A DNA stretch of 50,709 nucleotides from a phage, in sequence record NC_105617.1. One strand, written 5' to 3'. Shown here one piece after another: positions 10,439 to 47,633 of the stretch. Made by a program: the position numbers and the translations under genes. The notes beneath the pieces are model-generated. The model made no database searches. It was not told the origin of the DNA and saw only the letters and a list, made by a program, of their open reading frames with translations. How positions within the stretch are numbered: position 1 is the first letter of the stretch; each line of letters opens with the position of its first letter.

Positions 10439-10470
10439 TTTAACAAAAAGTGCTATTAACCAATCAGGAG
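10439..10470 (+). promoter_or_regulatory. Reverse-oriented TAGCAC box plus CCAATCAGGAG leader upstream of tail chaperone gene
   Basis: tttaacaaaaagtgctattaaccaatcaggag. Confidence 0.4.
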
Positions 10471-10477
10471 AAATATC

Positions 10478-10795
10478 ATGGCTAAATTTAATTTCGTTCT
10501 TGGTCAACTTCCAGACTTCAAACTTCCAGTCACCTTCACCATGCCTAACGGTGAAGATGCAACGATCATTTTCACTGTACGCCACCTTTCCAGTAAAGAA
10601 GTTCAGGATATGTATGCCAACCAGGGAGAAATGAACGATAGCGAGTTCATTACCAAGATCGCGTCAGGATGGAACCTTGAAGAAGAATTTAACGAAGAAA
10701 ATGCGCGAAAACTGGTTCAGTATTATCCTTCAGCAGCGTACAACCTGACAGCGACTTACATCAAGGCTCTCGCCGGACACCGCGCAAAAAACTAA
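10478..10795 (+). CDS. Tail assembly chaperone (G-like)
   Basis: 105 aa directly upstream of tape measure; ends in slippery heptamer A_AAA_AAC. Confidence 0.55.
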   Translation: MAKFNFVLGQLPDFKLPVTFTMPNGEDATIIFTVRHLSSKEVQDMYANQGEMNDSEFITKIASGWNLEEEFNEENARKLVQYYPSAAYNLTATYIKALAGHRAKN

Positions 10796-11112
10796 AAAGG
10801 GCGGTCTATCTGTTATATCAGAAGCCGCCAACAGAGGAACAATTGCGATCGGTTGGCTTAAGTCTTTCCGACTATGAAGACGAGGAGCCTGAAACGATAA
10901 TTGGCGACGCTGAAATGGTGAAGGCTTGGAATGTTTTTACATCAATGCTCACTCAGTGGAGAAGTTCAGGCGCTGGCGCTTACGGTCTTGATTATAATGT
11001 TTTGCCTATGTTGTTTAAAATCTATAAAATAGAAGATGAAGAACTGGCATTGCAGGACGTTAGGATCATGGAAGCGAAAGCGCTTGAAATGATTGCTAAG
11101 CAGAATAACTAA
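10478..11112 (+). CDS. Tail assembly chaperone, -1 frameshift fusion (GT-like)
   Basis: The -1 frame is open from the slippery site at 10786-10792 to 11112 with no stop; classic G/GT arrangement before the tape measure gene. Confidence 0.45.
10786..10792 (+). other. Candidate -1 programmed ribosomal frameshift slippery heptamer
   Basis: A_AAA_AAC in the zero frame of the chaperone gene, 1 codon before its stop; -1 frame open to 11112. Confidence 0.45.
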
Positions 11113-11113
11113 G

Positions 11114-11134
11114 CCGCCGTTTGGCGGTTTTTTT
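11114..11134 (+). terminator. Intrinsic terminator before tape measure gene
   Basis: ccgcc-gttt-ggcgg hairpin plus T7. Confidence 0.55.
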
Positions 11135-11151
11135 GTATATAAGGGGGTTAT

Positions 11152-14025
11152 ATGGTTGATAAGGTAGCAGGTCTATCGCTTGACGTTGATGTGTCGACAG
11201 TACAGCGCGCCGTCAAGTCATTGAAAGAGTTTTCAAAAGCTAACGACCAAGCCGCTGACTCTATGGGGTCTTTAATCAATGAGGCCGAGGTTGCAAAACA
11301 GAAGGCTAAAGAACACGCTGAGCAACTTAAGCGCCAGCGCAAAGAGTACGAGGCTGTAGAAAAGGCAATCGATCCTACAGTATCAAAAATGGAAAGGCTG
11401 AAGATTGCATCTCAGCAGCTTGATAAACTCTGGCAAAAGGGCATTGTTCCAGATGAAACATTTTTCCGTTTGGGTGAAATGCTGGACATGCAAAATGCAA
11501 AACTTGCTCGCAGCCGGGCCATGCTTACTGAAGAGGGGCAGGCAGCATTGCAGGAAGCGAAAGCAAAAGAGCAGGCAGCAGCGAAAAACAAAGCGTTCAT
11601 GGATTCCCTTAACAGTCAGGTTAACGCTATTGGCAAAACTCACGCAGAGTTAATGGAACTGAAAGCGGCTCAGCTTGGGCTATCAAATGAAGCAGCGCCA
11701 CTGATCGCAAAACTGAAAGAGCAGGGTCGAGCCATGAATGCCGCAGGTATTAGCGCGGGGCAATATAGGCAGGCAATGCGAATGCTTCCTGCACAGATTA
11801 CCGACGTCGTTACATCTCTTGCGTCCGGTATGCCAGTTTGGATGGTTGCCATCCAGCAAGGCGGTCAAATTAAGGACTCGTTCGGAGGGATCGGGAATAC
11901 GTTTAAGGTATTGCTCAGCTATATTAATCCGGTCACAGTTGGCGTTGGTGTTCTTGTCGGCTCTTTAGGACTTCTTGCGAAAGCTGGTTATGACTCTTAC
12001 AAGTCAATAACTGATATGCAGAAGGCTCTTGTTGAGACTGGAGGTTACGCAGGAGTCACGGCTGAAGAACTTGATTCTGTTGCTAAAAAGGTGGCTCAGA
12101 CGAGCAACTCAACAATTTCAAGCATTCGTGAGATTGTTACTGAACTTGCCAGTACGGGGAAGTATACGCGAGAGCAGATTCAGAACATCACAAAGGCTAC
12201 CGCTGAGTGGTCGACAGCAACCGGAAAATCAGCAAGTAAAATCATCGCTGAGTTCGATAAAATCGCAAGCGATCCTGTAAAGGGTCTGGCTAAACTTAAC
12301 GAGCAATACAACTTTTTAGAAAAAGGTCAACTGACATATATCGATACGCTAAGCCGTACTAAGGGTGAAACGGAGGCAGTGTCTGAAGCAACAAAATTAT
12401 TCGCCGAAGTTATGGAGAAGCGAATGAAGTCGATCGCAGACAATGCCACTCCTCTTGAAAAAATGTGGAACGATATTAAGCAGTGGGCCTCTGATGCGTG
12501 GGGGTGGGTTGGGGATCATACTCTCGGAGCATTAAACCTGATTATTGACGTAGTTCAGGGTACGGTAATTCAGGTAAAAATGATTCTGGCGAAGGGCGAT
12601 GAGTACATATCAAACTTTATAGCCTCTGCAATTAAGGCTACGCAGTCTCTGCCTGGAATGAGTGATTTCGGCGCTGATGTACTAAAGGAACAGGAGAATA
12701 TTGTAAAAAGTTCTCGTGACAACTACGATCAGTTAGCTTCAGAGCTTGATGCCATCAACGCCCGTGTTGAAAAAGGTGAGATGGGATACATTGAAGCAAT
12801 GAAGCAGCGCCGTACTCTTGAAAAGCAGTATAGCCAGGAAACTAAGGACGCTATCAAGGAAGAAGCTGAAGAGATCGAAAAGCGAAACCGTGAACGAAAT
12901 AAGCAGTCGAAAATTTTACGCTCACCTACAGAGCAATTCGATAAGGAGTTAATTTCACTCAAAGCACAGCTTAAGGTTTTGCAGGAGCACAAGGAGATAG
13001 GGCAAAAACTATCAGCACAGAGAAAGGCGCTGTTTACGACTGAGGCTACAATTGCCGTTCTTAGAGAAGCTAGTTCTAAGCGTCAGTTATCTGCGGAAGA
13101 AAAAGCACTACTTGCAAACCAGGAGAAAGTTTTAGAGCTTGCGAAACAAAAGGCCGAGATTGGCGATCAGATTGTTAAGCAGCAGCAGTTGAACGCTCTT
13201 ACTGATAAATCACTGAAGTTTGTCAATGATTTGACGGCAGCTACAGAGCAGCTAAACGCGTCTCGCGGGATGAGCACCCGAGAAATGGAGCGACAAGCGG
13301 AGTTGGCTAAGATCACCACTGACTATATTAATGCGGGTGGCAGCGAAGGGGATGAAAAACTCCAGAACATGATCAAGGCGCAAAATGATTACTATGCTGC
13401 GGAAGATGCCAAGCGTGCTGACTGGTTGGCAGGTGCTGAAAGCGCATTTGCAGATTACGGCGATTCCGCAATGGATATGTATGGTAACGTATATGATATA
13501 GCGTCAAGTTCACTTAACGGAATGAGTGATATGATGACCCAATTCCTGACTACAGGTAAGGCAAACTTTGAGGACTTTGCGAAAAACATCATTAGCATGA
13601 TTATAAAGATGATTGCTCAGATGGTAATCTTCAATACGATCTCAGGCATGATGGGCGGTAAGACGTGGAGCTTTGCTGGAGTGGCGTCGTCTGGTGCTTC
13701 TGCGGCATCACAGGCAACCCCTACGCCTGCCGCCTCCGGTTTTAGGTCTTTATCATCGGGCGTTGCTGTTACCTCGCTTGCTGCCGCAGCTGGTAGTGTG
13801 GCAACATCTGGATTTAACGCATCTAAAGCAGCGCCGAAGGCAGTAAACCAATCAGCAGGTGGGACGGTCGTTGACGTTAGGGGCATGGAGGTTAAAGTTG
13901 ACAATGGTTCAGATCCGAGAGGAATTTCTCAGGGCGTAGAGATGATGTTCAAAAAAATGATTCGCGAATCTTGTTCTCAGGGCGGTGAGGTTTACAATTA
14001 CATTCAGGAAAAAACAGGAGGCTAA
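11152..14025 (+). CDS. Tail tape measure protein
   Basis: 957 aa, long coiled-coil regions, Gly/Ala/Ser-rich C-terminal part; position between chaperones and M/L/K/I/J-like genes. Confidence 0.9.
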
Positions 14026-14027
14026 TA

Positions 14028-15243: not shown

Positions 15244-15974
15244 TTAATGCAAAAATTAAACTTGAAATCATGACTCACGCTCAAGAAGAATACCCCCGAG
15301 AATGCTGCGGGGTAGTTACCCAAAAAGGACGCGTGCAAAAATACCATCGCATTGATAACGTGCATCGCGATCCTGAGAATCATTTCATGATGGACGCAGT
15401 GCAATACGCATGTATTGAGGATGACGCAGACTCAACCACGATTGCGATCGTTCACAGCCACACAGGAGACGGGGCTACAACTCTTCCCAGTGCGCACGAC
15501 ACATGCATGTGCAACGAGATGGAAGTTACCTGGATTATTGTTAGCGTACCGGAAGGAGATATGCGATTTGTTAAGCCTGAGAAATTACCTCTGATTGGTC
15601 GACCGTGGTCGTTAGGCTCATTTGACTGTTACGGTCTAGTAATGGCGTGGCACAAAGAGCACGGCGTAGAGTTACGCGATCGCCGATTGAATTTTGAATG
15701 GTGGAAACCTGAGTACGGAATTAATCTCTATCAGGATTATTACAAGCAAGATGGATTCGTTGAGATTCCAGATCAGAATAACCCATCATTCGGGGATATG
15801 GTAATCATGCAGATAGGGCAAAATGTTCCGGTATGGAACCACGCAGGGATTTACCTTGGTGATAATCAGATCTTGCATCACGCCTTTGGCAAACTTTCGA
15901 GACGTGATATCTATTCCGGCTGGTATCAGGATCATACTGTTTTAATTGTTCGCCATAAGGATCTTAAATTATGA
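15240..15974 (+). CDS. Tail assembly protein (lambda K-like, JAMM/MPN + NlpC/P60)
   Basis: JAMM-type motif HSHTGDGATTLPSAHD (H-x-H-x7-S-x2-D); ATGA overlap with upstream gene. Confidence 0.65.
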   Translation: MINAKIKLEIMTHAQEEYPRECCGVVTQKGRVQKYHRIDNVHRDPENHFMMDAVQYACIEDDADSTTIAIVHSHTGDGATTLPSAHDTCMCNEMEVTWIIVSVPEGDMRFVKPEKLPLIGRPWSLGSFDCYGLVMAWHKEHGVELRDRRLNFEWWKPEYGINLYQDYYKQDGFVEIPDQNNPSFGDMVIMQIGQNVPVWNHAGIYLGDNQILHHAFGKLSRRDIYSGWYQDHTVLIVRHKDLKL

Positions 15975-16570
15975 ATGATGTAAAAGTAATCAAATTATCC
16001 GGTTCACTTGGAAGGCGCTTCGGCGTCTTCCACCGATTCGCTGTTGACTCTTACCCGGAAGCTATCCGGGCGCTATCCAGTCAGGTGGATGGGTTCAAAG
16101 AATATATGCAAAGTGAGGTCGGCTCGCGTAGCAAGTTTGCAATATTTGTGGACGGCGTTAACGTAGGCCACCATGAAGAGGAAAAATTCAAGTGTGCTAA
16201 AGAGATAAGAATCGTCCCGATCCCGACTGGCTCTAAGTCTGGAGGTCTATTCCAGGTAGTATTGGGCGCGGCAATAATGGTTGCCGCATTCTATACTGGC
16301 GGCGCATCTCTGGCGTTAATGGGTACAATGTCATCATCTCTGTTTATGATGGGCGGCGCTATGGTGCTGGGAGGTGTAATGCAGATGATTTCACCGCAGC
16401 CGGGTGGCGCAAATTTTGAGGTTCAGTCCAGTAAAAACAAGCCTTCGTACGCATTCGGCGGTGCTGTCAATACGACGGCAGCGGGATACCCCCTTCCGGT
16501 CCCGTATGGATATCGTGCTGGAGGTGGCGCAACATTCTCGGCAGGTTCTTACGCTGAGGATATGAGTTAA
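15971..16570 (+). CDS. Tail assembly protein (lambda I-like)
   Basis: 199 aa, hydrophobic/Gly-rich C-terminal half; ATGA overlap; precedes the J-like gene. Confidence 0.55.
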   Translation: MNDVKVIKLSGSLGRRFGVFHRFAVDSYPEAIRALSSQVDGFKEYMQSEVGSRSKFAIFVDGVNVGHHEEEKFKCAKEIRIVPIPTGSKSGGLFQVVLGAAIMVAAFYTGGASLALMGTMSSSLFMMGGAMVLGGVMQMISPQPGGANFEVQSSKNKPSYAFGGAVNTTAAGYPLPVPYGYRAGGGATFSAGSYAEDMS

Positions 16571-16647: not shown

Positions 16648-19600
16648 ATGATTCAAAAAGTGATAAGTGGTTCGAAAGGCGGCTCTCCTAAGCCTCACAA
16701 TCCAGTTGAAATGGAAGATAACCTGATCTCAATCAACAAAATAAAGATTCTTCTGGCAGTATCTGATGGCGAGATTGACGAAACATTCAACCTCAAGCAG
16801 CTGATGTTTAACTCAGTCCCGGTGCAAAACGAGGATGGCTCTTTCAACTTTGAAGGCGTAACGGCAGAGTTCAGGTCGGGCACGCAGACTCAGGAATACA
16901 TCAAAGGTATGGAGGATAGCTCCAGCGAGGTAACTGTAAACCGTGAGATTACTACCGATAATCCATACACGATCTCAGTAACCAACAAGACGCTGTCGGC
17001 AATCCGTATCAAAATGTTCATGCCTCGCGGCGTACGCATTGAAAGTAACGGCGATAAGAACGGCGTTCGCGTTGAGTACGAAGTGCAGCAAGCGGTTGAT
17101 AGTGGTTCGTTTGAGACTGTTCTCACTGACGTAATCGAAGGCAAAACAATGTCAGGTTACGACCGAAGTCGTCGAATAAACTTACCAAACTTCAACAACC
17201 AGGTGATATTCAGGATTGTTAGAAAGACTCCAGACTCTGATAACTCAAACGTTGTCGATGCAATTCAGGTAAAAAGCTATGCTGAGGTTATCGATGCCAA
17301 GTTCCGTTATCCCCTGACTGGTCTTCTTTTTGTCGAGTTTGATTCGAAAATGTTCCCAAACCAACTACCTACGATCTCAATTCGTAAGCGCTGGAAGATT
17401 ATTAACGTTCCATCGAATTACGACCCTGAATCGCGAACATACAACGGAAATTGGGATGGTACTTTCAAGAAGGCGTGGACTAACAATCCGGCATGGGTTC
17501 TATACGACCTGATGATTAATCAGCGTTATGGACTGGATCAGAAAGAGCTTGGAATCTCCGTAGATAAATGGGCGCTATATGAGGCCGCGCAATATTGCGA
17601 TCAGATGGTTCCAGATGGAAAGGGTGGAACTGAGCCTCGCTACCTTTGCGACGTGATAATTCAGTCACAAACTGATGCATACAAAGTGATTCGAGATATT
17701 TGCTCAATATTCCGAGGTATGAGCTTTTGGAATGGTGAAAGCATTTCTGTAATCATCGACAGACCGCGTGAGCCTGCGTACATCTTCACTAACGACAACG
17801 TTGTTAATGGTGACTTCTCATACACGTTCGCAAGCGAAAAGAGCATGTACACGACGTGTAACGTGATGTTTGATGATGAACAAAACATGTATCAGCAGGA
17901 CGTTGAGCCAGTATTCGATCGAGAGGCCACTCTACGGTTCGGTAACAATGTAACCAGCATTACAGCGATCGGATGTACCAGACGCAGCGAGGCTAACCGA
18001 CGCGGGAGATGGATTCTGAAAACTAACCTCCGCAGCACTACGGTAAACTTCGCTACCGGGCTTGAGGGTATGATCCCGACCATCGGTGATGTGGTGGCGA
18101 TAGCTGACAACTTCTGGTCAAGTAACTTGACTATGAACCTGTCAGGAAGATTGCTCGAAGTGTCTGGACGTCAGATTTTCTTGCCGTTCCGAGTGGATGC
18201 GCGCGCAGGTGACTTTATTATCGTAAATAAGCCAGATGGAAAGCCCGTGAAGCGCACAATCTCAAGCGTTAGTGCAGATGGCAAGACCATAGAGATTAAC
18301 ATCGGCTTTGGCTTTCCTGTTAAGCCTAACACTGTATTCGCAATCGACCGCACTGACCTGGCATTGCAGCAGTACGTCGTGACAAAAATCGACAAGGGTG
18401 ATGACGATGAGGAATTTACCTACAAGATTACTGCGGTGGAGTACGATCCTAACAAGTACGACGAGATTGATTACGGCGTAAACATCGATGACAGACCGAC
18501 GAGCATTGTTGAGCCAGACCAGATTCCTAGACCGGAAAACGTGAAAGTATCCTCAGAGTCTAGAATCGTGCAGGGAATGAGCGTAGAAACGATGATTGTT
18601 AGCTGGGACAAAGTGCCGTACGCAGTTTTCTATGACGTCCAGTGGAGAAAGGATAATGGAAACTGGCAGAACGTCCCGCAGACGGCAAACAAGGAGGTTT
18701 ATGTTGAAGGGATTTACGCTGGAAACTATCAGGTTCGCGTGCGATCAGTAGCTGGTTCCGGAACGACTTCGGGATGGTCAAATATCGTCGCAGCGACGCT
18801 GACAGGTAAGCAGGGTGAGCCTGGTCGACCGATTAACCTTACAGCTACGGATGACGTTGTTTTTGGTATCCGTACAAAGTGGGGGTTCTCTGATGGTTCT
18901 GGAGATACGGCCTATACAGAATTGCAACAGTCACCGGATGGAACGGTTGATAACGCAAGTTTGCTATCTCTTATTCCATACCCGCAGCATGAGTATTATC
19001 ACTCACCGATGCCTGGAGGGAATATTGTGTGGTATCGGGTAAGGACGGTTGACAGGATCGGTAACGTATCTCAGTGGACTGATTTTGTCAGAGGCATGGC
19101 ATCAACAAACGTTGACGATATCATCGGAGAGATTTCTGTCGATATCGAAAACTCGCCGGGTTACGAGTGGCTTGTTGATAACGCAACAGACAACGCGGCG
19201 CAGAACGCAGCTAACGCAGAGGCGGCAATAGAAAACGCGCTCGCCAATGACAAAGATGCGATCTACATGAAGAAGGAGAACGGAAAACGAAAAGCTGAGT
19301 ACACGAAATCACTTAAACTTATTGCTGATGAGACGCAGGCGCGAGTGACGTCGATCGAGCAGTTGAAGGCAAGTTTTGACGATCAGATTAGCGCAAGCAA
19401 TAGCGAGTTGCGTGAAGTTATAGCAACCGAGACTGGAGCGATATCGCGTGAAATTGACCAACTCAAGGCTCAGATTGGTGACGATATTCAGGCGAGCTTG
19501 ACAGATATCAGAGAGGCTATCGCAAACGAGACTGAGGCCAGAACTCAGGCCGACTTAACGTTAAACGCGAGGCTTGGAAATAACGAGGCGGCACTTGCTC

Positions 19601-20100
19601 AAAAACTTGACTCTTGGAGTAATGCGAGTTCTACCGGGGCGATGTACGGCGTTAAGCTGGGGCTGAAATACAACGGGCAGGAATACAGCGCAGGAATGGC
19701 TATGTCCCTGATTGGTTCCGGCGCGGCTGTTAAGGCTCAGATTCTTTTTGAGGCGTCACGATTTGCAATCATGACCGGGATGAATGGAAAGACACAATAC
19801 CCGTTTGTTGTTGAGAATGGTCAGGTTATTTTAAGTAGCGCGATCATTAAAAACGGATTCATCACTAATGCTATGATTGGAAACGTTATTCAATCGAATA
19901 ACTTCTCTTCAGGTAGTGCTGGATGGATGGTTAACAAGAATGGATCGGCTGAGTTTAATGCGGTTACTGTCAGAGGCAAACTTTACGCAAGTAACGGTGA
20001 GTTTGCATTCAACGGAACGGGTAATACCGTTCAGATTAACAATAACGGCATCACGGTAAACTTACCTGGTGGCGGGAAAGTTGTAGTGGGGAGGTGGTAA
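16648..20100 (+). CDS. Tail tip / host specificity protein (lambda J-like)
   Basis: 1150 aa, last gene of the tail operon, fibronectin-III-like segment (WSNIVAATLTG), coiled-coil region, followed by terminator. Confidence 0.85.
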   Translation: MIQKVISGSKGGSPKPHNPVEMEDNLISINKIKILLAVSDGEIDETFNLKQLMFNSVPVQNEDGSFNFEGVTAEFRSGTQTQEYIKGMEDSSSEVTVNREITTDNPYTISVTNKTLSAIRIKMFMPRGVRIESNGDKNGVRVEYEVQQAVDSGSFETVLTDVIEGKTMSGYDRSRRINLPNFNNQVIFRIVRKTPDSDNSNVVDAIQVKSYAEVIDAKFRYPLTGLLFVEFDSKMFPNQLPTISIRKRWKIINVPSNYDPESRTYNGNWDGTFKKAWTNNPAWVLYDLMINQRYGLDQKELGISVDKWALYEAAQYCDQMVPDGKGGTEPRYLCDVIIQSQTDAYKVIRDICSIFRGMSFWNGESISVIIDRPREPAYIFTNDNVVNGDFSYTFASEKSMYTTCNVMFDDEQNMYQQDVEPVFDREATLRFGNNVTSITAIGCTRRSEANRRGRWILKTNLRSTTVNFATGLEGMIPTIGDVVAIADNFWSSNLTMNLSGRLLEVSGRQIFLPFRVDARAGDFIIVNKPDGKPVKRTISSVSADGKTIEINIGFGFPVKPNTVFAIDRTDLALQQYVVTKIDKGDDDEEFTYKITAVEYDPNKYDEIDYGVNIDDRPTSIVEPDQIPRPENVKVSSESRIVQGMSVETMIVSWDKVPYAVFYDVQWRKDNGNWQNVPQTANKEVYVEGIYAGNYQVRVRSVAGSGTTSGWSNIVAATLTGKQGEPGRPINLTATDDVVFGIRTKWGFSDGSGDTAYTELQQSPDGTVDNASLLSLIPYPQHEYYHSPMPGGNIVWYRVRTVDRIGNVSQWTDFVRGMASTNVDDIIGEISVDIENSPGYEWLVDNATDNAAQNAANAEAAIENALANDKDAIYMKKENGKRKAEYTKSLKLIADETQARVTSIEQLKASFDDQISASNSELREVIATETGAISREIDQLKAQIGDDIQASLTDIREAIANETEARTQADLTLNARLGNNEAALAQKLDSWSNASSTGAMYGVKLGLKYNGQEYSAGMAMSLIGSGAAVKAQILFEASRFAIMTGMNGKTQYPFVVENGQVILSSAIIKNGFITNAMIGNVIQSNNFSSGSAGWMVNKNGSAEFNAVTVRGKLYASNGEFAFNGTGNTVQINNNGITVNLPGGGKVVVGRW

Positions 20101-20129: not shown

Positions 20130-21102
20130 AATACATGTTCGGAAGAACTATCAACGGAGATTGAATTGCTATGTTCCTGTTAGGCATCACGAATTGCTGT
20201 CGAGAGTAGTTGCCAACAACCTTATTTTTAGCAACTCTTACCTTGTTTCCAGCCATTCTAATCCCGTTCATCCTTACGTGGTTATATCCTCCATTCCCTT
20301 CAATAAGTGCGCCGCAGTATGATAGCTGAATCAAGCTGTTTCCTATATCCTGATCCCCCGTTCCGATGTTGATTACGCGGTTGTAAACGAATGGCTTATT
20401 TACTGTAGAAAAAGTAACCTGACCTTGCTTGTTTGTCATTGTTATACCGTTACCGCCGCGAGGTGGAGTGTTATTGAATATAACTAAATCCATAGAAACA
20501 GAGGCTGTTACGTCATCTCTCCCCCCGTATGATGCATTCCTTACCGTGATGTTTGAACCGTCAAATCCAACGCTTACATTAGGATCGTCCCATCTGGCGA
20601 AAGGTATGCCGCTTACTGGCAACTTCATGTTTCCATTTACAGTTATACGTTTTGAGTATTGGCACGTCATTAATTTTGCAACGTTTGATATAGCTGTGAA
20701 ATCAGTAGAGTTTGCAACCAGTAAGCCCTCGTTTCTTGTTCCTACTGGCAATATTTCCATGACAGTACCAGCCCATTGAGGTAGCCCGTTATATGCACTC
20801 AATGCATCATCGCCTCTAATTATCACTCCGCTATTGCCATTCCTTGATACCGTCGTCGCATAAAACGGATCTGGTATAACAAGTGTCTGGTCGAACACCT
20901 CAATAACGTCAACAGGTTTTGTGAAAACAACAACAACCTGAGATCCCGGAGTTAATGGAGTATTTACTGTTAACGTCTTGTTTGATTGCGCCCTCTGATT
21001 AAAGTTAGCGCAGAATGACGGTGCGCGAAGCCCTGCCGTTATTTGCATCGCTGGTCGTCCGTCATTGTAGTTTACATATATCCCCTCACCCATAATTACC
21101 AC
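20128..21102 (-). CDS. Hypothetical beta-rich protein; candidate receptor-binding/host-range protein
   Basis: 324 aa, Gly/Asn/Thr/Val-rich; start overlaps the stop of the upstream Cor-like gene (same strand); function inferred from context only. Confidence 0.3.
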   Translation of the reverse strand: MVIMGEGIYVNYNDGRPAMQITAGLRAPSFCANFNQRAQSNKTLTVNTPLTPGSQVVVVFTKPVDVIEVFDQTLVIPDPFYATTVSRNGNSGVIIRGDDALSAYNGLPQWAGTVMEILPVGTRNEGLLVANSTDFTAISNVAKLMTCQYSKRITVNGNMKLPVSGIPFARWDDPNVSVGFDGSNITVRNASYGGRDDVTASVSMDLVIFNNTPPRGGNGITMTNKQGQVTFSTVNKPFVYNRVINIGTGDQDIGNSLIQLSYCGALIEGNGGYNHVRMNGIRMAGNKVRVAKNKVVGNYSRQQFVMPNRNIAIQSPLIVLPNMY

Positions 21103-21823: not shown

Positions 21824-21854
21824 GGATTCATCGTAAACGAAGGAGATAAACGAA

Positions 21855-22929: not shown

Positions 22930-22985
22930 TAGCTAAACAAATAATTAATGAGGTGTTATAATGCACCTCATACACCAATCAGGAG
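22930..22985 (+). promoter_or_regulatory. Degenerate box-hairpin cassette upstream of erf-like gene
   Basis: tagctaaac box, hairpin gaggtg/cacctc with TATAAT in loop, then CACCAATCAGGAG leader. Confidence 0.4.
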
Positions 22986-22993
22986 AAGTTAAG

Positions 22994-27656: not shown

Positions 27657-27669
27657 CCTAACTCTCCTG

Positions 27670-37060: not shown

Positions 37061-37089
37061 CACAATAAACTCCTTAGTTGACGGTGTAA

Positions 37090-37132
37090 ATGATACACCG
37101 CCAATGGTATACGCTTTTTGCAAAAAGTGCTA
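37090..37132 (-). promoter_or_regulatory. Box-hairpin-(-10) cassette (minus)
   Basis: Minus strand tagcactttttgcaaaaa + 22 nt + TATCAT. Confidence 0.45.
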
Positions 37133-37562: not shown

Positions 37563-37589
37563 TCCTGATTGGTTATCTTGAATAAGGCC

Positions 37590-37632
37590 ACTTTATCAAA
37601 TGACCTTACGGCAATATTAACAAATCGTGCTA
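37590..37632 (-). promoter_or_regulatory. Box-hairpin-(-10) cassette (minus)
   Basis: Minus strand tagcacgatttgttaat + 22 nt + TAAAGT; near-duplicate of plus cassette 45457-45505. Confidence 0.5.
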
Positions 37633-38151: not shown

Positions 38152-38295
38152 TCAGTACTCGGAAATTACTTTACACTCTTTGATTGTTCCACCTAGAACT
38201 ACTTTCTGCATCATTGCTTTTTGGTGGCTATCGTAAACGCGAACATTTTTTACGCTGTTAAATTTGCCAGTATAGAAAGTGTGAATATAAATCAT
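38152..38295 (-). CDS. Small hypothetical protein (micro-ORF)
   Basis: 47-aa ORF below track cutoff; ATGA overlap with upstream stop; its own stop TGA directly abuts a TAGCAC box. Confidence 0.25.
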   Translation of the reverse strand: MIYIHTFYTGKFNSVKNVRVYDSHQKAMMQKVVLGGTIKECKVISEY

Positions 38296-38612
38296 TTTTT
38301 ACCGTCCCATGTTTGATACGCCGTCACAAGGTTAATGCTATGGTCGAACTCGTCAATGCTAAGCGATCCGATTCGAACCAGTTCTTTATCATGCTTAATA
38401 TCTATCATCCGGCTATATGGATGACCTGGCACGTATTTGAACAGTCGCTTGCTGTCAGCAATATCAGCGTTGATTCCATAGAATCGGCCTACCGCCGCCT
38501 TCACGCGCTCCATGATGTTTTTTTCGTGGATTGCTGCCGCGTTATTCAATGCCGCGACCGTGCTTCCGTTAATCTTCGGTGATTTCGTTGTGATTTTATA
38601 AGTGTGGTTCAT
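38292..38612 (-). CDS. Hypothetical protein
   Basis: Start placed at ATG 38612 behind RBS GGGGG; track ORF extends further upstream without RBS. Confidence 0.45.
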   Translation of the reverse strand: MNHTYKITTKSPKINGSTVAALNNAAAIHEKNIMERVKAAVGRFYGINADIADSKRLFKYVPGHPYSRMIDIKHDKELVRIGSLSIDEFDHSINLVTAYQTWDGKK

Positions 38613-38628
38613 TATTCCCCCTAACCAG

Positions 38629-38829
38629 TCAGGATAGCTTTCTCGCTTCATCAATGATAACAGGTTCGAGACGCTCAAGTCGAACGCGGAACGTGTTCAT
38701 AAATCCTTCGTTATTCTTCAGTAGCTCGAATGCGTCTGTTGCCTCAATTGCGCTATTTCCCATGTAGGCAACTACTCTCTTTTGCGTCTTGCGTGAGATC
38801 GCAACCACGCGGTAGATATTATCACTCAT
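38629..38829 (-). CDS. Hypothetical protein
   Basis: Start at ATG 38829 behind strong RBS AAGGAGG; overlaps end of upstream gene. Confidence 0.45.
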   Translation of the reverse strand: MSDNIYRVVAISRKTQKRVVAYMGNSAIEATDAFELLKNNEGFMNTFRVRLERLEPVIIDEARKLS

Positions 38830-39377: not shown

Positions 39378-39608
39378 TTACCCCCTGAAACTATCAATAG
39401 TGTCATTAATGTATTTCACCTGAGCCTCGACGTCTGACGTGGCGATATACTGAAATGTATCGTAATCCTCCCGCAAGTCGACAAGCTCAATCTTTGTATG
39501 ATGCTCTTTCAAGCCACCCATGTGACCGTAATGCGTTCTGTAGACAATGAATCCCTCATCATTGGCGCGCTGAATTGCCTTCTTCAGCCCGGGGTGTTTA
39601 ATTGCCAT
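39378..39608 (-). CDS. Hypothetical protein
   Basis: 76 aa behind cassette with CCAATCAGGAG leader. Confidence 0.5.
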   Translation of the reverse strand: MAIKHPGLKKAIQRANDEGFIVYRTHYGHMGGLKEHHTKIELVDLREDYDTFQYIATSDVEAQVKYINDTIDSFRG

Positions 39609-39639
39609 CTGTTGATTCTCCTGATTGGTTGATGTGTTA

Positions 39640-39682
39640 ACTATACCCCGATCTCACTCGGGGCGTTTAGCAATTCGTGCTA
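39640..39682 (-). promoter_or_regulatory. Box-hairpin-(-10) cassette (minus)
   Basis: Minus strand TAA stop + tagcacgaattgctaaac + 22 nt + TATAGT; hairpin ccccga/tcgggg. Confidence 0.55.
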
Positions 39683-40018: not shown

Positions 40019-40056
40019 TTTCTTGCTCCTGATGTGTATCTCGTTTCGATGAGGTA

Positions 40057-40099
40057 ATAATGCCAGATTCCATTCCGGCAGTTTTAACAAAAAGTGCTA
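40057..40099 (-). promoter_or_regulatory. Box-hairpin-(-10) cassette (minus)
   Basis: Minus strand tagcactttttgttaaaac + 22 nt + CATTAT; box encodes C-terminus of MTase-like gene. Confidence 0.5.
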
Positions 40100-40788
40100 T
40101 TTGCGATCGCTTTAAAAAATCCCCTGGGCGACAGGGATCGTATCAACTTAGTTTTGGCAGATTTGCCGCCTAGCTTACTGTGCTGTGCAGAGTACCCGTC
40201 AGGCAGGCTTACAGGTTTTCTCTCGGGCATGACAAAATCGTCAGAGGTCCAAAGGCAAGTTTTCTTCGGGTAAGCATCGCGCGGCGCAATATACATCGGG
40301 AACCAGGGGTGTGAGTCATTCTCAGGAAGATAGCCGCCATACTCCCAGGGATTGAAGGAGTGATTTGGTTTTCTCCAGGCAGATGACAGGACGCTAACCG
40401 GATTCTCAATGATGTAAGTCACGCCCAGGCTATCGCCAATGTTCGCAGCAATCCGGGCGGTGGCAACAGCCTTCTCCTGGAATAACTGATCGCGTTCACG
40501 CTTTCTTGCGAAGTGAGCGGCACCACTAACAGCTAGGTCAGTGCACGGCGGGAAGGCCATAATGAAATCCGGCTTGCCATACACGCCAGCGATAGCATCA
40601 CGCTCAAACGCTGCGTCAATGAACACGTTCACATACTCAATGTTCGGATGCTCCACTCGGGCATTGTACTTTGCGTAATCTCCGTGATCGGCTCCGTCAA
40701 AGTTGAAGCACATTACCTTGTGACCTTGCTTAGCTAGCTCATGACCAGCAAGACCGGAACCGTCGAATAGGGACCAAATCAACTTCAT
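40084..40788 (-). CDS. DNA cytosine-C5 methyltransferase-like protein (compact, noncanonical)
   Basis: Motif I-like LFDGSGLAG, motif IV-like FPPCTDLAVSGA (PC dipeptide, T in place of Q), motif VI-like IIENPVS; only 234 aa; last five codons (NSTFC-stop) are encoded by a TAGCAC box. Confidence 0.5.
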   Translation of the reverse strand: MKLIWSLFDGSGLAGHELAKQGHKVMCFNFDGADHGDYAKYNARVEHPNIEYVNVFIDAAFERDAIAGVYGKPDFIMAFPPCTDLAVSGAAHFARKRERDQLFQEKAVATARIAANIGDSLGVTYIIENPVSVLSSAWRKPNHSFNPWEYGGYLPENDSHPWFPMYIAPRDAYPKKTCLWTSDDFVMPERKPVSLPDGYSAQHSKLGGKSAKTKLIRSLSPRGFFKAIANSTFC

Positions 40789-40928: not shown

Positions 40929-41018
40929 GTCGATTCCTCTGATTGGTTGATGAGATGAATCATACCCGATCGGCAGTGCTGATGTGTTGCAAAAAATGCT
41001 ATTCCAATAGTTGCTCAT

Positions 41019-41610
41019 TATTCCACCATCAATGGAATATCTGGAATAATTGCGATCCCGATTGATCTCGAATGATGAAATGTGATTGTTGCATGGTGTG
41101 CAACTGTTGATGTGATTGTTTCTTAGAATGCAATGATTGTGAGAGGGGGGATTTAGTGTTACCCGGTTCGCCTGGTGGTCATCTCCATTTTTAGCAAAAC
41201 GTGCTATCGATTACAATTTAACTTGTCACGACTGTAATATTTGTCTAGAATCGCACTTGTGACAAAATTACGCACTGTGACGCATCACAATAGACATATA
41301 GATATATGTATATATATAATATATATAGTGTTTTTTTTATTTATATATATAGATAATTATATTGTAATAGTTGTGTATAGCCGTCTTACATTGTCTAGCG
41401 TACTGTTGGCATATTTCTATCTGCATGTTTATATATACAGTACTTTTTTGAGGGCTATATATTTCTATAGTGACTCTAGACAGCTAGACAAATATTACAC
41501 AGCTTAAAATTGGCTTGCAGTCGTTGACAGCTCTACGTCGCTCTGTCACAATGGCAATTGTTGACATGCTATGACACCATTTACACACCAATAGACAAAG
41601 AGGGCACATT
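41019..41610. repeat. AT-rich divergent control region with repeated TGTCAC/GTGACA and TTGTCTAG/CTAGACAA motifs (hub 2)
   Basis: Repeats tgtgattgtt x2, acttgtcac/acttgtgac, ttgtctag x2, ctagaca x2, atagaca x2; (TA)n tracts 41295-41360. Confidence 0.5.
41524..41552 (+). promoter_or_regulatory. Candidate sigma70 promoter for plus-strand early block
   Basis: TTGACA-17 bp-CACAAT about 58 nt upstream of ATG 41611. Confidence 0.4.
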
Positions 41611-42126
41611 ATGAGCAATACCAATCAGGAATTAAAAATCACCGACATGATTCGACTAACCTGCGATGCAATGTACCGCGACAAAGGCATGACCGAGTTC
41701 TCTTTCGTGGCTGATGATATGGCCCTAGAAGCAGCGCGATTCTACTTTCGTGGCCAGGAGGTAAGTGATAGCGATCTTGAATCTGCCGCTGCCGGATGGG
41801 TGGACCAGAACCAGGGGGAGGTAGAGAAGCGATTCAAATCTGCTTTCATCACTCCAATCATTACCCGACACTTTTGCAAGTATGGCAAGGTGGCAAAGGT
41901 GAAGGTAGGCCGGAATGACGCGGCAATCACGATGATAACCGTTATCGTTACCGACGAAGAGGTTCCGGTGAAGAAGCGCCGCAGCCGGAAAAAAGTTAGC
42001 CTGGCCGACTGCCTTGATTCGTTTGACGTTGATGTTAGCAAGCTATCCGATAGCGAGTTAATGGTTCGTGATGTGAATGAGATCGTGCGCCAGATGAAAG
42101 CACATATTGAAAAGTGTGGACTGTAA
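41611..42126 (+). CDS. Hypothetical protein
   Basis: 171 aa, first gene of the plus-strand early block, RBS AGAGGG; basic patch KKRRSRKK. Confidence 0.5.
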   Translation: MSNTNQELKITDMIRLTCDAMYRDKGMTEFSFVADDMALEAARFYFRGQEVSDSDLESAAAGWVDQNQGEVEKRFKSAFITPIITRHFCKYGKVAKVKVGRNDAAITMITVIVTDEEVPVKKRRSRKKVSLADCLDSFDVDVSKLSDSELMVRDVNEIVRQMKAHIEKCGL

Positions 42127-42378: not shown

Positions 42379-42424
42379 CACTTTTTGTTAAAACCGGAGC
42401 GGGATAACCTGGTATAGTTATCCC
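42376..42424 (+). promoter_or_regulatory. Box-hairpin-(-10) cassette
   Basis: TAG stop = box start; ttgtta + 22 nt + TATAGT; hairpin gggataa/ttatccc. Confidence 0.55.
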
Positions 42425-42449
42425 ATCGACAACGAATGAGGAAACGAAG

Positions 42450-42646: not shown

Positions 42647-43117
42647 ATGACAACCATTACCGTATTTCTTGCTAAAGATGAGCTTGATGGCGAAATGTCA
42701 TTCTTCGCGTTTGAGCACAAGACCGGATCGCACTGGCATGCGTACACTCACTACACGGTTATCTCAATCGAGGCGTTCGAAGGTGATTCACTCACTGATA
42801 AGCTGAGTTATTTTGTTGAAGCGGTTAAGGCTAGCGGCGGCTGTGAGTGGAAAGAAGATCACGAAGTTATGCGAATGCTTGAGATGGTCAATCCGGTTCG
42901 ACTTGAGTCTTTCGAGCTTGATTCTTACGTGAGCATTAAGGTGAGAAAGCCGGGTGAGTTGTTGCCAGGGATGCGTGTGCTGACTGGTTACTCAGGTCGT
43001 AAAGTGTGGCGAACCATATCGAAGATTCGACAGCGCTCAGAAACATGCTACAGCGTGTTCTTTGATGACGGCTGGAATGAGGTTGCTGGTAGTAACGTGA
43101 AGTATCTTACCAAATAG
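42647..43117 (+). CDS. Hypothetical protein
   Basis: 156 aa; stop TAG inside a TAGCAC box. Confidence 0.45.
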   Translation: MTTITVFLAKDELDGEMSFFAFEHKTGSHWHAYTHYTVISIEAFEGDSLTDKLSYFVEAVKASGGCEWKEDHEVMRMLEMVNPVRLESFELDSYVSIKVRKPGELLPGMRVLTGYSGRKVWRTISKIRQRSETCYSVFFDDGWNEVAGSNVKYLTK

Positions 43118-43163
43118 CACGAATTGCTAAAACCGGATCGGGGTATCTTGCTATAGTTACCCC
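43115..43163 (+). promoter_or_regulatory. Box-hairpin-(-10) cassette
   Basis: TAG stop = box start; ttgcta + 22 nt + TGcTATAGT; hairpin ggggta/tacccc. Confidence 0.55.
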
Positions 43164-43196
43164 ATCAAAACGACACACCAATCAGAGGATTTCACC

Positions 43197-43460
43197 ATGT
43201 CAATCGTCAAGAATAGAAACGCAATTGAAGCTACTCGCCACAACAAGCAACACGCGATTTTCATTGCTCGCTACTGCTCAAGCATCAATGGTGGCTTGCA
43301 GTATCGCCGCTATGCAGTGATTGAGCTTTCCCCATACATTTACAAAGAGTATCGAGAGGAGAATGGCAAGTGGATTGAGATTGAGGGCGTAACGAGCTTC
43401 TTGATCTGGAATGGTGAATTTCAGGGGTACGACGATATCAGCACTTTAATTGAGGAATAA
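43197..43460 (+). CDS. Hypothetical protein
   Basis: 87 aa behind cassette 43115-43163 with CCAATCAGAGGA leader. Confidence 0.45.
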   Translation: MSIVKNRNAIEATRHNKQHAIFIARYCSSINGGLQYRRYAVIELSPYIYKEYREENGKWIEIEGVTSFLIWNGEFQGYDDISTLIEE

Positions 43461-44172: not shown

Positions 44173-44218
44173 CACTTTTTGTTAAAACGCGATCATGTGG
44201 TTGCGATATAGTAACCAC
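44170..44218 (+). promoter_or_regulatory. Box-hairpin-(-10) cassette
   Basis: TAG stop = box start; ttgtta + 22 nt + TATAGT; hairpin gtggtt/aaccac. Confidence 0.55.
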
Positions 44219-44243
44219 ATCGACAACGAATGAGGACGAGAAC

Positions 44244-44732: not shown

Positions 44733-44780
44733 GCACGAATTGTTAAAAGGGGATTCGTCCTGACTGGTACAATCCACATA
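44730..44780 (+). promoter_or_regulatory. Box-hairpin-(-10) cassette
   Basis: tGAgcacgaattgttaaaag + 22 nt + TGgTACAAT. Confidence 0.5.
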
Positions 44781-45310: not shown

Positions 45311-45459
45311 TGGCTTCATGGGTTTTGATTATCTTAATGAGTACCGGGCCAGATCACGTATACATGGAAAGCCAACAATCATGCAACAAGGCTCGGGAGG
45401 TGATTTCAGAGAACAGGCCGTTCGGATACGAAGTAAAAACGATGTGCGTTAAACGATAG
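45310..45459 (+). CDS. Small hypothetical protein (micro-ORF)
   Basis: 49 aa with hydrophobic N-terminus (MASWVLIILMSTG); TAATG overlap upstream; stop TAG is the TAG of a TAGCAC box. Confidence 0.3.
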   Translation: MASWVLIILMSTGPDHVYMESQQSCNKAREVISENRPFGYEVKTMCVKR

Positions 45460-45505
45460 CACGAATTGATAAACCTTCCGCAAGGCCATTTGATATAGTG
45501 GCCTT
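45457..45505 (+). promoter_or_regulatory. Box-hairpin-(-10) cassette
   Basis: TAG stop of micro-ORF = box start; ttgata + 22 nt + TGaTATAGT; hairpin aaggcca/tggcctt. Confidence 0.55.
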
Positions 45506-45539: not shown

Positions 45540-45746
45540 ATGGCTACACGACTAACTCAGTGGCAGATTTACGACAAGGCCTCACGCCTACGTGAATCAC
45601 TTCGCGGACTGACGCAGAATGACAGAATGGAGATTATCGGGCACGCATTGCACGAACTCACGCCGCCGGACGTAACCTATCATTCATGCGGCAATAAATT
45701 CTGGAACGTGACATTCGAGGTAAAGAAAGATGAGCAAAACTCATAA
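45540..45746 (+). CDS. Hypothetical protein
   Basis: 68 aa from ATG 45540 behind CCAATCAGAGGA leader. Confidence 0.45.
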   Translation: MATRLTQWQIYDKASRLRESLRGLTQNDRMEIIGHALHELTPPDVTYHSCGNKFWNVTFEVKKDEQNS

Positions 45747-46017
45747 GTTAAAAATCGCCCCGATACATTTCATTGGTGTAATGAACGGAACCAAAACGGC
45801 AGAGTTCCGCATCAATGACCGCAACTTCCAGGTTGGTGATATCCTTGAGCTACGCGAGTTCGATCGTGACGAGTTTACCGGGTGGGAAGTTCACGCAAGG
45901 GTATCCGATGTTACCGATGTGACGCCATACATTAATCGCGGGTATGACGATCAAGGATGCGACTTCACGCAATACGTGATGTTATCAATCAAACCTTACA
46001 GGAAGGTTAGACCATGA
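45730..46017 (+). CDS. ASCH/PUA-like domain protein (putative)
   Basis: 95 aa; N-terminal pattern KTHKLKIAPIHFIGVMNGTKTAEFRINDRNFQVGDIL resembles ASCH-type domains; weak. Confidence 0.35.
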   Translation: MSKTHKLKIAPIHFIGVMNGTKTAEFRINDRNFQVGDILELREFDRDEFTGWEVHARVSDVTDVTPYINRGYDDQGCDFTQYVMLSIKPYRKVRP

Positions 46018-46677: not shown

Positions 46678-46709
46678 TGGGAATCGTTCCTGAGCGGTTC
46701 CCTATTTTT
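46678..46709 (+). terminator. Terminator-like hairpin
   Basis: gggaatcg/cggttccc stem (one G-T pair) followed by T-rich tract. Confidence 0.35.
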
Positions 46710-46720
46710 ATGAGGTGAAT

Positions 46721-46843
46721 ATGAATAGCTTTATGCCTGACTTTAAGAACTGGAAAAACGAACCTCCATCATTTCAGGAGTTGCTATTCTGCCTCCTGGT
46801 CCTGACATTATCTCTTAAGGGTGTTTTATGGCTACTATCATGA
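46721..46843 (+). CDS. Small hypothetical protein (micro-ORF)
   Basis: 40-aa ORF with RBS GAGGTG and hydrophobic C-terminal half; overlaps next gene start. Confidence 0.25.
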   Translation: MNSFMPDFKNWKNEPPSFQELLFCLLVLTLSLKGVLWLLS

Positions 46844-47046
46844 CAGCAGAAGATGCAGCACGTGAAGCAGTGGAAGGAATGCGACCAAATACCTCCAGAA
46901 TCGCACACTACTACAAATTTGACGTATCGGCAGTGCAATTGGTCCATGAAATTTTAAGGCTCCCACAAGTCGATTCAGCGCGTGTGGTGGCGTGCTTAAA
47001 AAATTATTTTTGCATCACTATTAAAACGAATAGCACGAATTGCTAA
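46828..47046 (+). CDS. Hypothetical protein
   Basis: 72 aa; last five codons (NSTNC-stop) are encoded by a TAGCAC box. Confidence 0.45.
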   Translation: MATIMTAEDAAREAVEGMRPNTSRIAHYYKFDVSAVQLVHEILRLPQVDSARVVACLKNYFCITIKTNSTNC

Positions 47047-47079
47047 AACCTATCAAGGGGAATGCGCTATGATTCCCCT
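47031..47079 (+). promoter_or_regulatory. Box-hairpin-(-10) cassette
   Basis: Box encodes last codons NSTNC-TAA of upstream gene; ttgcta + 22 nt + TATGAT; hairpin ggggaat/attcccc. Confidence 0.5.
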
Positions 47080-47103
47080 ACACCAACGAACGAGGGAATA
47101 CTC

Positions 47104-47550
47104 ATGAAACACTTGATTTGCATTGATACACCTAACAATGAACACACTCTGCACGGCATTGGGATGTTCAAAGGCCACTACATGACAGCAAGCATTTATG
47201 ATGCGCATCGCGACGATGGCGATCTGATGATTACGTCAAAAGACGTTAATCCGTACATCATGCAGAATCTTGGCAACAATGAATATATGGCTTACGGATG
47301 CAACGCGGTGTACAAGAATGTCAAGATCCGTAAGCGTATTGTTCGCGCATTTAAGAAAATCGCCATGAAGCACTGGAAGATGAGCAAGAAGGAGGCTGGG
47401 CGCTGGGCGCGTAACGTTGCTGATTCATACTTCTATCGTAACGGTGAGTCGTGCCACTTCCTGATCGATGAAATGATGGAAAATTATAGCGGCACATTCC
47501 GCCAAAGTGATTTTGACGCTTGGGCTTACTACGAGGTAGATTGCTGGTAA
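47104..47550 (+). CDS. Hypothetical protein
   Basis: Start at ATG 47104 with RBS GAGGG, downstream of cassette 47031-47079. Confidence 0.45.
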   Translation: MKHLICIDTPNNEHTLHGIGMFKGHYMTASIYDAHRDDGDLMITSKDVNPYIMQNLGNNEYMAYGCNAVYKNVKIRKRIVRAFKKIAMKHWKMSKKEAGRWARNVADSYFYRNGESCHFLIDEMMENYSGTFRQSDFDAWAYYEVDCW

Positions 47551-47597
47551 TAGCACGAATTGCTAAAACTTACTCAAGGGCATTTGGTAGAATGCCC
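47551..47597 (+). promoter_or_regulatory. Box-hairpin-(-10) cassette
   Basis: ttgcta + 22 nt + TGgTAGAAT; hairpin gggcat/atgccc; CCAATCAGAGGA leader downstream. Confidence 0.55.
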
Positions 47598-47633
47598 TTC
47601 GTTGAGTTAAACAACCAATCAGAGGAATAAATC

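Follow-up and report, generated by a model that had tools for sequence, protein, structure and literature searches.

Chi (5'-GCTGGTGG-3') is read by RecBCD, and the stoperators of mycobacteriophage L5 are 13-bp asymmetric sites for the repressor of a temperate phage, lying in one orientation with respect to transcription. The gp4 primase of T7 uses 5'-TGGTC-3' and 5'-GGGTC-3' sites, which yield the primers pppACCA and pppACCC. Other elements act on the leaders of phage messenger RNAs (mRNAs): the epsilon enhancer of T7 gene 10, the sites cleaved at GGAG by T4 RegB and the RegA operators. In T4-type phages, PeSL (promoter-early stem-loop) cassettes, composed of an early promoter and a stem-loop, are duplicated among small early genes. 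Here we describe a short word, ACCARTCAG (R, purine), in record NC_105617.1. This 50,709-base stretch, the window, is the complete circularly permuted genome of a T1-like siphophage (Drexlerviridae, Tunavirus), T1 being one of the seven classical T phages. Its nucleotide identity to IME18, LeonhardEuler, Sfin-1, ADB-2 and Shfl1 is about 90% over 8 kb, and its gene order is colinear with that of the annotated Tunavirus SA30RD and of T1. The word is probably read on DNA, in one direction, by a protein; a minority of its copies also form part of mRNA leaders.

Abundance, conservation and orientation of the ACCARTCAG word

The nonamer ACCAATCAG has 17 exact copies in the window where dinucleotide shuffles predict 0.28 (0/100 shuffles reach 17), and an unbiased k-mer scan identifies it as the most over-represented 9-mer. 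Its G variant, ACCAGTCAG, has 12 copies, and the 9-mer excess is about 25-60-fold. ACCARTCAG thus occurs 29 times and, with one 8-mer-only copy at 16077, there are 30 CCARTCAG sites. Eight ACCAATCAG copies lie just before a Shine-Dalgarno (SD) sequence and are called leader copies below. The unit is nevertheless ACCARTCAG, because nine further copies of ACCAATCAG and the 12 copies of ACCAGTCAG fall outside leaders. Of these 21 non-leader copies, about 14 are antisense in open reading frames (ORFs), 6 are sense and one (44760) is intergenic. The word is preceded by a weak A (A 18, C 4, G 3, T 4 before ACCA; A = 62%) and followed by any base except T, then by a purine. Its general form is (A)CC[A/G][A/G]TCAG, then not-T, then purine (ACCAATCAGGA as an oligonucleotide), and it is strand-asymmetric.

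The intragenic copies occupy every reading frame. They read LIG, LTG or xDW when antisense and NQS, TNQ or PV when sense, in genes as unrelated as those for terL, the tape measure, tail proteins, recE, ssb, a helicase, a VRR-NUC nuclease and a DUF3987 helicase. A cause at the protein level is excluded, since the copies read differently across frames and strands (five different combinations in use). Small antisense ORFs that would make cryptic leaders of the intragenic copies lack a start codon at SD spacing. By inspection, no partner hexamer stands at a consistent spacing that would make the word a sigma-70 -35/-10, MotA-box-like or sigma-54 element, and the TTR part of an integration host factor site (WATCAR-N4-TTR) is missing.

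The word is a property of the family. ACCARTCAG and CCARTCAG are found 25 and 26 times in T1, 25 and 29 times in TLS, 15 and 26 times in KP36 and 9 and 19 times in Rtp, four phages of different subfamily-level lineages; in TLS, 27 of the 29 octamer copies are non-leader. Among 20 dereplicated relatives from IMG/VR, the variants with AA, AG and GG as central purines exceed their Markov-3 expectation 5-7-fold, a conservative figure since the word itself inflates that expectation. The 4 copies in the 40 kb of T7 are at background level. The word is not enriched in five outgroup loci, in which the helicase is 41-48% identical and gp23-like, Dam and gp16-like genes are absent nearby.

Individual sites are also maintained. 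T1 keeps all eight fixed bases at 22 of the 24 alignable sites, where about 10 are expected at ~90% identity (binomial P=8e-7), and the central A and G are swapped between the two phages at three sites. Sites in terL, the tape-measure gene and tail genes survive in TLS and/or KP36 at a local identity of 68-76%. In 69 site-by-genome comparisons, identity is 88.9% at the fixed bases and 71.6% in the flanks; flank columns drop to ~50% at intervals and no such dip occurs inside the motif. Selection on the word acts at the nucleotide level, whatever its frame or strand, and goes beyond coding constraint.

The preferred central purines differ between lineages: AA in TLS, AG in T1 and GG in the IMG/VR lineage L025. 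CCGGTCAG is preferred in some lineages (L025 has 7 copies in 19 kb), and the leading A is relaxed in some (noted for L025 and L043 and for Rtp and KP36, which correspond to L003 and L005). As judged from these sequences, such variation looks like drift in the specificity of a putative reader. A search for substitute words in low-density relatives found only a tandem protein repeat and cassette fragments. Avoidance of the GATC-creating CCGATCAG was considered and dropped: it occurs 4 times for 7.6 expected in five complete genomes, but 32 times for 15 expected in the IMG/VR set.

The sites are spaced more evenly than by chance (coefficient of variation of the gaps 0.62-0.80, versus 0.95 for random placement) and their orientation follows a rule. 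Adjacent sites less than 600 bp apart are all divergent (5'-CTGAYTGG...CCARTCAG-3'; Y, pyrimidine), at distances of 74-560 bp: 5/5 close pairs in this genome, 4/4 in T1, 6/6 in TLS, 5/5 in KP36 and 4/4 in Rtp, with P from 3e-5 to 5e-3 per genome when strand labels are shuffled. Close tandem or convergent pairs are absent from these five genomes, while random placement predicts about 3-7 per genome. The rule is significant in four largely independent genomes and extends to the IMG/VR loci, where 24/25 close pairs are divergent. For ~700 bp beyond the CAG end of a site there is no other site, and no such empty zone exists on the ACC side; this one-sided zone is the signature of directional action from the site. 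Promoters fail to explain the divergent pairs because many of them lie wholly inside structural genes; several others flank promoter cassettes, at 128-760 bp. The sites show no genome-long strand skew such as that of Chi or KOPS (FtsK-orienting polar sequences), and no helical phasing is evident in the pair distances.

The non-leader copies are distributed as follows. ACCAGTCAG at 1330-1338(-) is antisense in terL (sense frame P-D-W) and is kept in T1 (as the A variant), TLS and KP36, with one mismatch in Rtp. ACCAATCAG at 3784-3792(-) is antisense in gene 3463-4224 (L-I-G) and ACCAGTCAG at 8384-8392(+) is sense in gene 8080-8502 (N-Q-S). The tape-measure gene carries a divergent pair, with an antisense ACCAGTCAG on the left at 13418-13426(-), kept in T1 and TLS, and a sense ACCAATCAG on the right at 13847-13855(+). 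Another pair is formed by ACCAATCAG at 15591-15599(-), antisense in a minor tail gene and kept in T1 and KP36, and by the 8-mer core CCAGTCAG, preceded by T, at 16077-16084(+) in gene 15971-16570. Two antisense copies lie in the tail gene 16648-20100: ACCAGTCAG at 17314-17322(-), kept in T1 and TLS, and ACCAATCAG at 19708-19716(-), not conserved in T1. The lipoprotein gene 21096-21326(-) has an antisense ACCAGTCAG at 21279-21287(+). The recE-like gene 21855-22919 also has one, at 22476-22484(-), and this copy is the divergent partner of the leader copy at 22974. ACCAATCAG is antisense in ssb at 23854-23862(-), with the G variant in T1, and in helicase gene 27751-29769 at 28306-28314(-). The tightest divergent pair of the window (81 bp) is inside the VRR-NUC gene 29766-30182, with an antisense ACCAATCAG at 29985-29993(-), kept in T1, and a sense ACCAGTCAG at 30065-30073(+). 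A further antisense ACCAATCAG, for which T1 again has the G variant, is at 31797-31805(-) in gene 31568-31969. In the remaining part of the genome, ACCAGTCAG is sense in the DUF3987 helicase gene 35492-37123(-) at 36593-36601(-), antisense in gene 38292-38678(-) at 38624-38632(+), antisense in gene 42647-43117 at 42980-42988(-), where it is the divergent partner (198 bp) of the leader copy at 43177, and sense in gene 50172-50396 at 50301-50309(+). ACCAATCAG at 41620-41628(+) forms codons 4-6 of gene 41611-42126. Finally, T1, TLS and Rtp all keep the intergenic ACCAGTCAG at 44760-44768(-), whose complement CTGACTGGT overlaps the promoter of gene 44804 at its extended -10 (TGGTACAAT).

Possible readers of the word

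Conservation in any frame and the orientation rule make it likely that the word is a polar signal read by a protein at the DNA level. A conserved phage protein would read it and act directionally from the site. We suggest that the word tells the replication machinery of the phage where to start or load, with each site launching synthesis in the direction in which it points. On this view a divergent pair would be a start point in both directions and a single site a start in one. Leader copies would occupy the only free intergenic space, the slot just 5' of the SD, where the purine-rich stretch 3' of the word can blend into the SD; this may be why they exist. We give this reading as a whole, mechanism included, a probability of roughly 0.35. 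The replication mechanism taken by itself is a tentative choice. It is ranked first because close pairs are useful only if divergent when sites launch synthesis, because the phage encodes a primase with a T7-type zinc ribbon as well as a DUF3987 helicase and its relatives have no annotated polymerase, and because the word begins with ACCA, as does a T7 primase primer.

The primase is encoded at 26208-27143(-) and matches the Pfam profile Zn_Ribbon_Prim (PF08273, E=5.5e-16, exceeding the curated cut-off), and the helicase gene 35492-37123(-) matches DUF3987. No DNA polymerase is annotated in T1, TLS, Rtp, KP36 or SA30RD. PDB sequence searches with the primase, the DUF3987 helicase and the gp16-like protein gave no match. 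Other candidate genes for DNA handling encode a RecE-like exonuclease (21855-22919), an Erf annealase and a ResIII-type helicase (27751-29769) beside the VRR-NUC nuclease (29766-30182). A conserved Cro-like helix-turn-helix (HTH) protein is encoded at 27204-27728(-).

Several points speak against the proposed reading. Known primases read about 3 nucleotides (nt), against 8-10 here. The base before ACCA is mostly A and not the G demanded by a T7-like cryptic C, and pairwise similarity between the primase and T7 gp4 is limited to the region of the zinc-ribbon CxxC motif. The leading A is relaxed in both KP36 and Rtp, and the related lineages L023, L038 and L043 have few copies. Simple tiling would place convergent neighbours at about double the distance of tandem ones, which is not observed. 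Lastly, the leader copies use AA only and keep a fixed spacing to the ATG, which a pure DNA model does not predict.

A more general proposition is rather doubtful. In it, a directional process on DNA would be obliged to start or load at the word, 8-10 nt long; the process would be priming and helicase loading at specific sites, or the control of a resecting nuclease. If it were true, some 30 hard-wired polar sites at even spacing would serve to work the genome, the back-to-back pairs would be two-way units (several bidirectional origins, for instance), and one site in three would also be part of an mRNA leader. The word would then be a phage-encoded counterpart of Chi or of primase sites with a previously unseen orientation grammar.

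A rival explanation is that of a Chi-like or exonuclease-pause signal. Read by a nuclease or helicase, it would either restrict the resection of phage DNA or label that DNA as self during degradation of the host's. The word has the formal properties of Chi (8-9 bp, asymmetric, over-represented on both strands and in all frames, evenly spread, conserved in position), the polar neighbour rule suits a direction-dependent reader, and the phage encodes the RecE-like exonuclease, the Erf annealase and the ResIII-type helicase beside VRR-NUC. Its sequence is however unrelated to that of E. coli Chi, the reader protein is only putative, independent action on the two strands does not alone predict that close neighbours are exclusively divergent, and only ~30% of the genome is bracketed by inward-facing sites. 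We consider this explanation unlikely, even though host-genome degradation by T1-like phages is listed as an open question (PMC11447400).

The sites might instead be operators or roadblocks for a phage regulator binding as a monomer, in the manner of stoperators: leader copies would shut early units, pairs would loop or insulate, and the copy on a -10 would be a classical operator. The asymmetry and number of the sites (~30 per genome) are compatible with this, as are the eight copies at +5 to +25 of promoters, the 44760 copy that overlaps an extended -10 and is kept in three subfamilies, and the several divergent pairs around cassettes at loop-like distances of 128-760 bp. The Cro-like HTH protein is conserved and is absent near the helicase in outgroup phages without the word. 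It would, however, be a more natural reader of the palindromic 21-nt box described below. Orientation with respect to transcription is mixed, the leader copies being sense and about 70% of the intragenic copies antisense, many divergent pairs sit inside structural genes with no promoter between them, and these phages are virulent. A regulator of this kind is thus also an improbable reader.

The window is organized in a terS-to-tail block (1-20.1 kb, plus strand), a block of recombination, replication and lysis genes (21.8-34.7 kb, mostly plus strand) and two early arms that diverge from a 600-bp AT-rich non-coding region at 41.0-41.6 kb. This region (41018-41610) is 64% AT, contains (TA)n runs and near-consensus sigma-70 promoters (TAGACA-18-TATAAT at 41291-41320), and is the counterpart of the T1 genome end. 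A pac site and/or an origin may be located there.

Leader copies and their promoter cassettes

The original prediction rested on at least eight genes, on both strands, with ACCAATCAG in their leader, and the eight copies listed are all present. Five are on the plus strand: 10459-10467 precedes the tail assembly chaperone gene 10478-10795 (GAG, then ATG 10 nt on), 22974-22982 the Erf-like annealase gene (probable start 22994), 43177-43185 gene 43197-43460, 45520-45528 gene 45540-45746 and 47614-47622 the polynucleotide kinase/phosphatase gene 47634-48167. Three are on the minus strand: 37565-37573 before gene 37137-37551 (T1 gp7-like), 39621-39629 before gene 39378-39608 and 40939-40947 before a small ORF starting near 40925. 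Each copy is followed by GAG or AGGA, by a start codon 10-12 nt after the motif and by an ORF of 47-215 codons. Conservation past the SD had been stressed, and the leaders do have more in common than the SD itself; the 9-mer, on the other hand, is not specific to them, 21 of its 29 occurrences being elsewhere.

It had been proposed on this basis that ACCAAUCAG beside the SD is an RNA element of leaders, either a translational operator or enhancer, an endoribonuclease site or the target of a small RNA (sRNA), in which case the intragenic copies would be unrelated. The fixed place of the word relative to the start codon in the eight leaders agrees with this, and leader copies are of the AA variant in 21 of 22 cases against ~50:50 elsewhere (Fisher P=7e-5 over five genomes; 0.005 without T1). 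The motif is moreover predicted to be mostly unpaired in weakly structured A/C-rich leaders, which would suit a standby or enhancer site. However, the leaders share no fold (minimum free energy -1 to -7 kcal/mol), no Rfam family is found across the whole genome, and E. coli 16S and 23S ribosomal RNA contain no complement with one mismatch or less, the best duplex being of 7 bp (16S 1019-1025). An operator, an enhancer or a processing site is therefore not borne out. The sRNA target fares no better: every anti-motif copy is inside a coding gene, with none in non-coding DNA able to act as an sRNA. Pairing between the RNAs of divergent-pair members, or of leaders with intragenic anti-motifs, meets a central C·A mismatch in 5/6 pairs; members of a pair are not pairing partners, since the leader member is invariably the A variant and its partner is usually the G variant. 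The prevalence of non-leader copies here and in TLS, mostly antisense and conserved past coding constraint, also argues against a leader element, as does the variable distance from the predicted +1 to the word (+5 to +15). In orthologous leaders the motif is no better kept than the rest of the cassette (identity 0.90 versus 0.85, n=10). The copy at 44760 is hard to picture as sense RNA because it is on the strand opposite to transcription, over an extended -10. We therefore regard an element confined to leader RNA as quite unlikely. The eight leader copies may still have an added role in translation, given their AA preference and fixed distance to the ATG, or in RNA processing.

Scans of a subset of the proteins against Pfam, PHROG and NCBIfam, which did not cover all small ORFs, identified no RegA or RegB homologue. 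An ASCH/DUF3850 (PUA-like) protein encoded at 45730-46017(+) is labelled RNA-binding by PHROGs and RefSeq; its gene is the second of an operon whose first gene has a ACCAATCAG leader.

Most leader copies belong to a promoter cassette of constant order: a 21-nt box, a spacer of exactly 22 nt, a hairpin with an extended -10 (TGnTATAGT or closely similar) in its loop, a +1 at AUC..., the word, starting at +5 to +15, and the SD, which always adjoins it. The box consensus is TAGCAC-N3-TTGNTAAAA, with a quasi-palindromic core, TAGCA-N5-TGCTA. The hairpin arms vary among cassettes yet always pair. The cassette of leader 43177 (43115-43157, +) has the box TAGCACGAATTGCTA, the 22-nt spacer and TGc-TATAGT in a GGGGTA/TACCCC hairpin. 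Those of leaders 45520 (45457-45499, +) and 47614 (47551-47593, +) have AAGGCCA/TGGCCTT around TATAGT and AAGGGCA/TGCCCTT around TAGAAT. The cassettes of leaders 37573 and 39629 are on the minus strand, at 37590-37632, with a hairpin paralogous to that of 45457, and at 39640-39682. In these five, the box ATAGCACnnnTTGnTAAAA is oriented with transcription and stands about 76 nt ahead of the start codon. Leader 10459 has an inverted and abutting box, and leader 40947 has none of its own, the nearest (41206) being ~260 nt upstream. Leader similarity is partly due to paralogy, since sister cassettes have common hairpin sequences (45457 with 37632; 43115 with 39682).

A second leader family had also been reported. 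It is found as exact copies of CATCGACAACGAA at 42424, 44218 and 48894, and in a degenerate fourth copy at 21829 before recE, all on the plus strand. The complete leaders are CATCGACAACGAATGAGGAAACGAAG (42424-42449, ATG at 42450), CATCGACAACGAATGAGGACGAGAAC (44218-44243, ATG at 44244), CATCGACAACGAAGAGAGAAAATAGAA (48894-48920, ATG at 48921) and, after TATAAT, CATCGTAAACGAAGGAGATAAACGAA (21829-21854, recE ATG at 21855). The first three are likewise preceded by the directed box. In the 42424 leader the A of the conserved CATC, the 7th base after TATAGT, is the predicted +1; this family is thus the entire short 5' untranslated region (AUCGACAACGAAUGAGGA...) of three sister promoters. The first family is a leader of the second type lengthened by ACCAAUCAG.

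That the word has no function of its own, being a by-product of duplicated promoter-leader cassettes and of codon and composition bias, is extremely improbable: the cassettes are clearly paralogous (common hairpins and initial transcribed sequence) and CTG, ATT, GGT, GAT and TGG are common codons, but the intragenic copies are scattered over unrelated genes and frames and are not surrounded by cassette sequence, and neither the 25-60-fold excess, nor the identity of the motif (0.889, free of ~50% dips, versus 0.716 for flanks), nor an orientation rule significant in four largely independent genomes fits such an origin.

The box core TAGCAC-N3-T[T/A][G/C] has 21 copies in the genome, including plus-strand sites at 42376, 43115, 44170, 45457, 47031, 47551 and 48846 and minus-strand sites at 34970, 37132, 37632, 38151, 39267, 39682, 40099 and 41206. 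It stands at a constant 22 nt before the extended -10, and a usable -35 is absent. This constant distance puts the middle of the box near -43, a position resembling that of a class II activator or operator site. Its internal spacing is N3, versus N5 in sigma-54 promoters. The Cro-like HTH protein (27204-27728, -) is a candidate reader of this box. In the late region, a box at 50679-50709 joined to 1-3 lies 16 nt before the terS start with no -10 between them, and inverted boxes occur at 6690 (6676-6690) and 10455 (10441-10458, the one abutting the tail chaperone leader).

Most cassettes have a stem of 6-10 bp enclosing the -10, not followed by a T-run (43136-43165, 45467-45492, 47561-47586, 48850-48888 and 37595-37622(-)). 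The annotation of SA30RD has WebGeSTer/TransTermHP terminators in the corresponding, colinear intergenic stretches, immediately before the same genes; given this position, they probably correspond to the cassette hairpins. The hairpin may expose the -10 as single-stranded DNA, or work in read-through RNA.

The promoters of two DNA methyltransferase genes, one Dam-family (30250-30963) and the other on the opposite strand (40084-40788), are near-identical from the box to the initial transcribed sequence (30180-30249(+) and 40030-40099(-)). Their alignment, of 100 columns and reaching past the cassette on both sides, is 85% identical, suggesting co-regulation or recent cassette copying. The ATG at 22961, the Erf start used in T1 and SA30RD, falls within the promoter TATAATG (22957-22996). 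The SD-spaced ATG at 22994, after the ACCAATCAG leader, is a more likely start on the basis of this arrangement. Similar upstream-extended ORFs are present at 45498 and 41018(-).

Relation to known systems

The word has consequences for several aspects of these phages. It gives a concrete handle on the T1 replication origin, on the early-to-late switch and on how the phage spares its own DNA amid host destruction, and lineage drift in the word could be used to identify its reader by co-variation. For annotation, hairpins enclosing a -10 are being labelled terminators and at least one start codon (that of Erf) is probably placed inside a promoter. In phage engineering, recoding the codons of T1-like genomes without keeping the word may cost fitness.

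The 21-nt box has already been published. It corresponds to a direct repeat of TLS, aaATAGCACnnnTTGnTAAAA, also present in other T1-like phages, and its function is an open question in that work (PMC11447400, 2024), which also cites the L5 stoperators. The repeat and the word share genomes and intergenic cassettes, with several boxes ~60 nt upstream of leader words. However, the repeat is quasi-palindromic, intergenic and fixed in place, whereas ACCARTCAG is asymmetric and mainly intragenic. The ACCARTCAG/CCRRTCAG word is mentioned neither in PMC11447400 nor in a comparative paper on T1-like phages, and none of the phage papers ranked at the top of literature searches with sequence strings describes it. 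To our knowledge its orientation rule has not been described.

The T7 epsilon, RegB and RegA elements are also short conserved sequences at or beside the SD of several phage mRNAs; here there is no complementarity to ribosomal RNA and most copies are outside leaders. PeSLs are also repeated intergenic modules of a promoter and a stem-loop, but in the present cassettes the stem encloses the -10 and is accompanied by a conserved upstream box and a conserved leader, and PeSLs lack a genome-wide intragenic word.

Like Chi, the word is a strongly over-represented, asymmetric sequence of 8 bases that is found in coding DNA whatever the frame, acts in a single orientation and is scattered over the genome. 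It differs in being unrelated in sequence, specific to a phage family and present about once per 1.7 kb, the divergent-pair rule belongs to it and not to Chi, and its reader is only putative. The L5 stoperators are likewise some 25-30 dispersed asymmetric sites, within and between genes and in some cases just downstream of promoters. Here, in contrast, the sites are of 8-10 bp, their orientation is mixed (14 antisense and 6 sense intragenic copies) and the phage is virulent. With the T7 gp4 sites the word shares its first bases, ACCA (ACCG in some lineages), and a primase of the same Pfam zinc-ribbon family, and divergent pairs would yield outward-pointing primers. However, T7 requires 5 nt including an obligatory cryptic C, whereas 8-10 positions are constrained here, mostly with an A before ACCA. 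The word therefore resembles Chi, stoperators and primase sites while departing from each in at least one defining feature.

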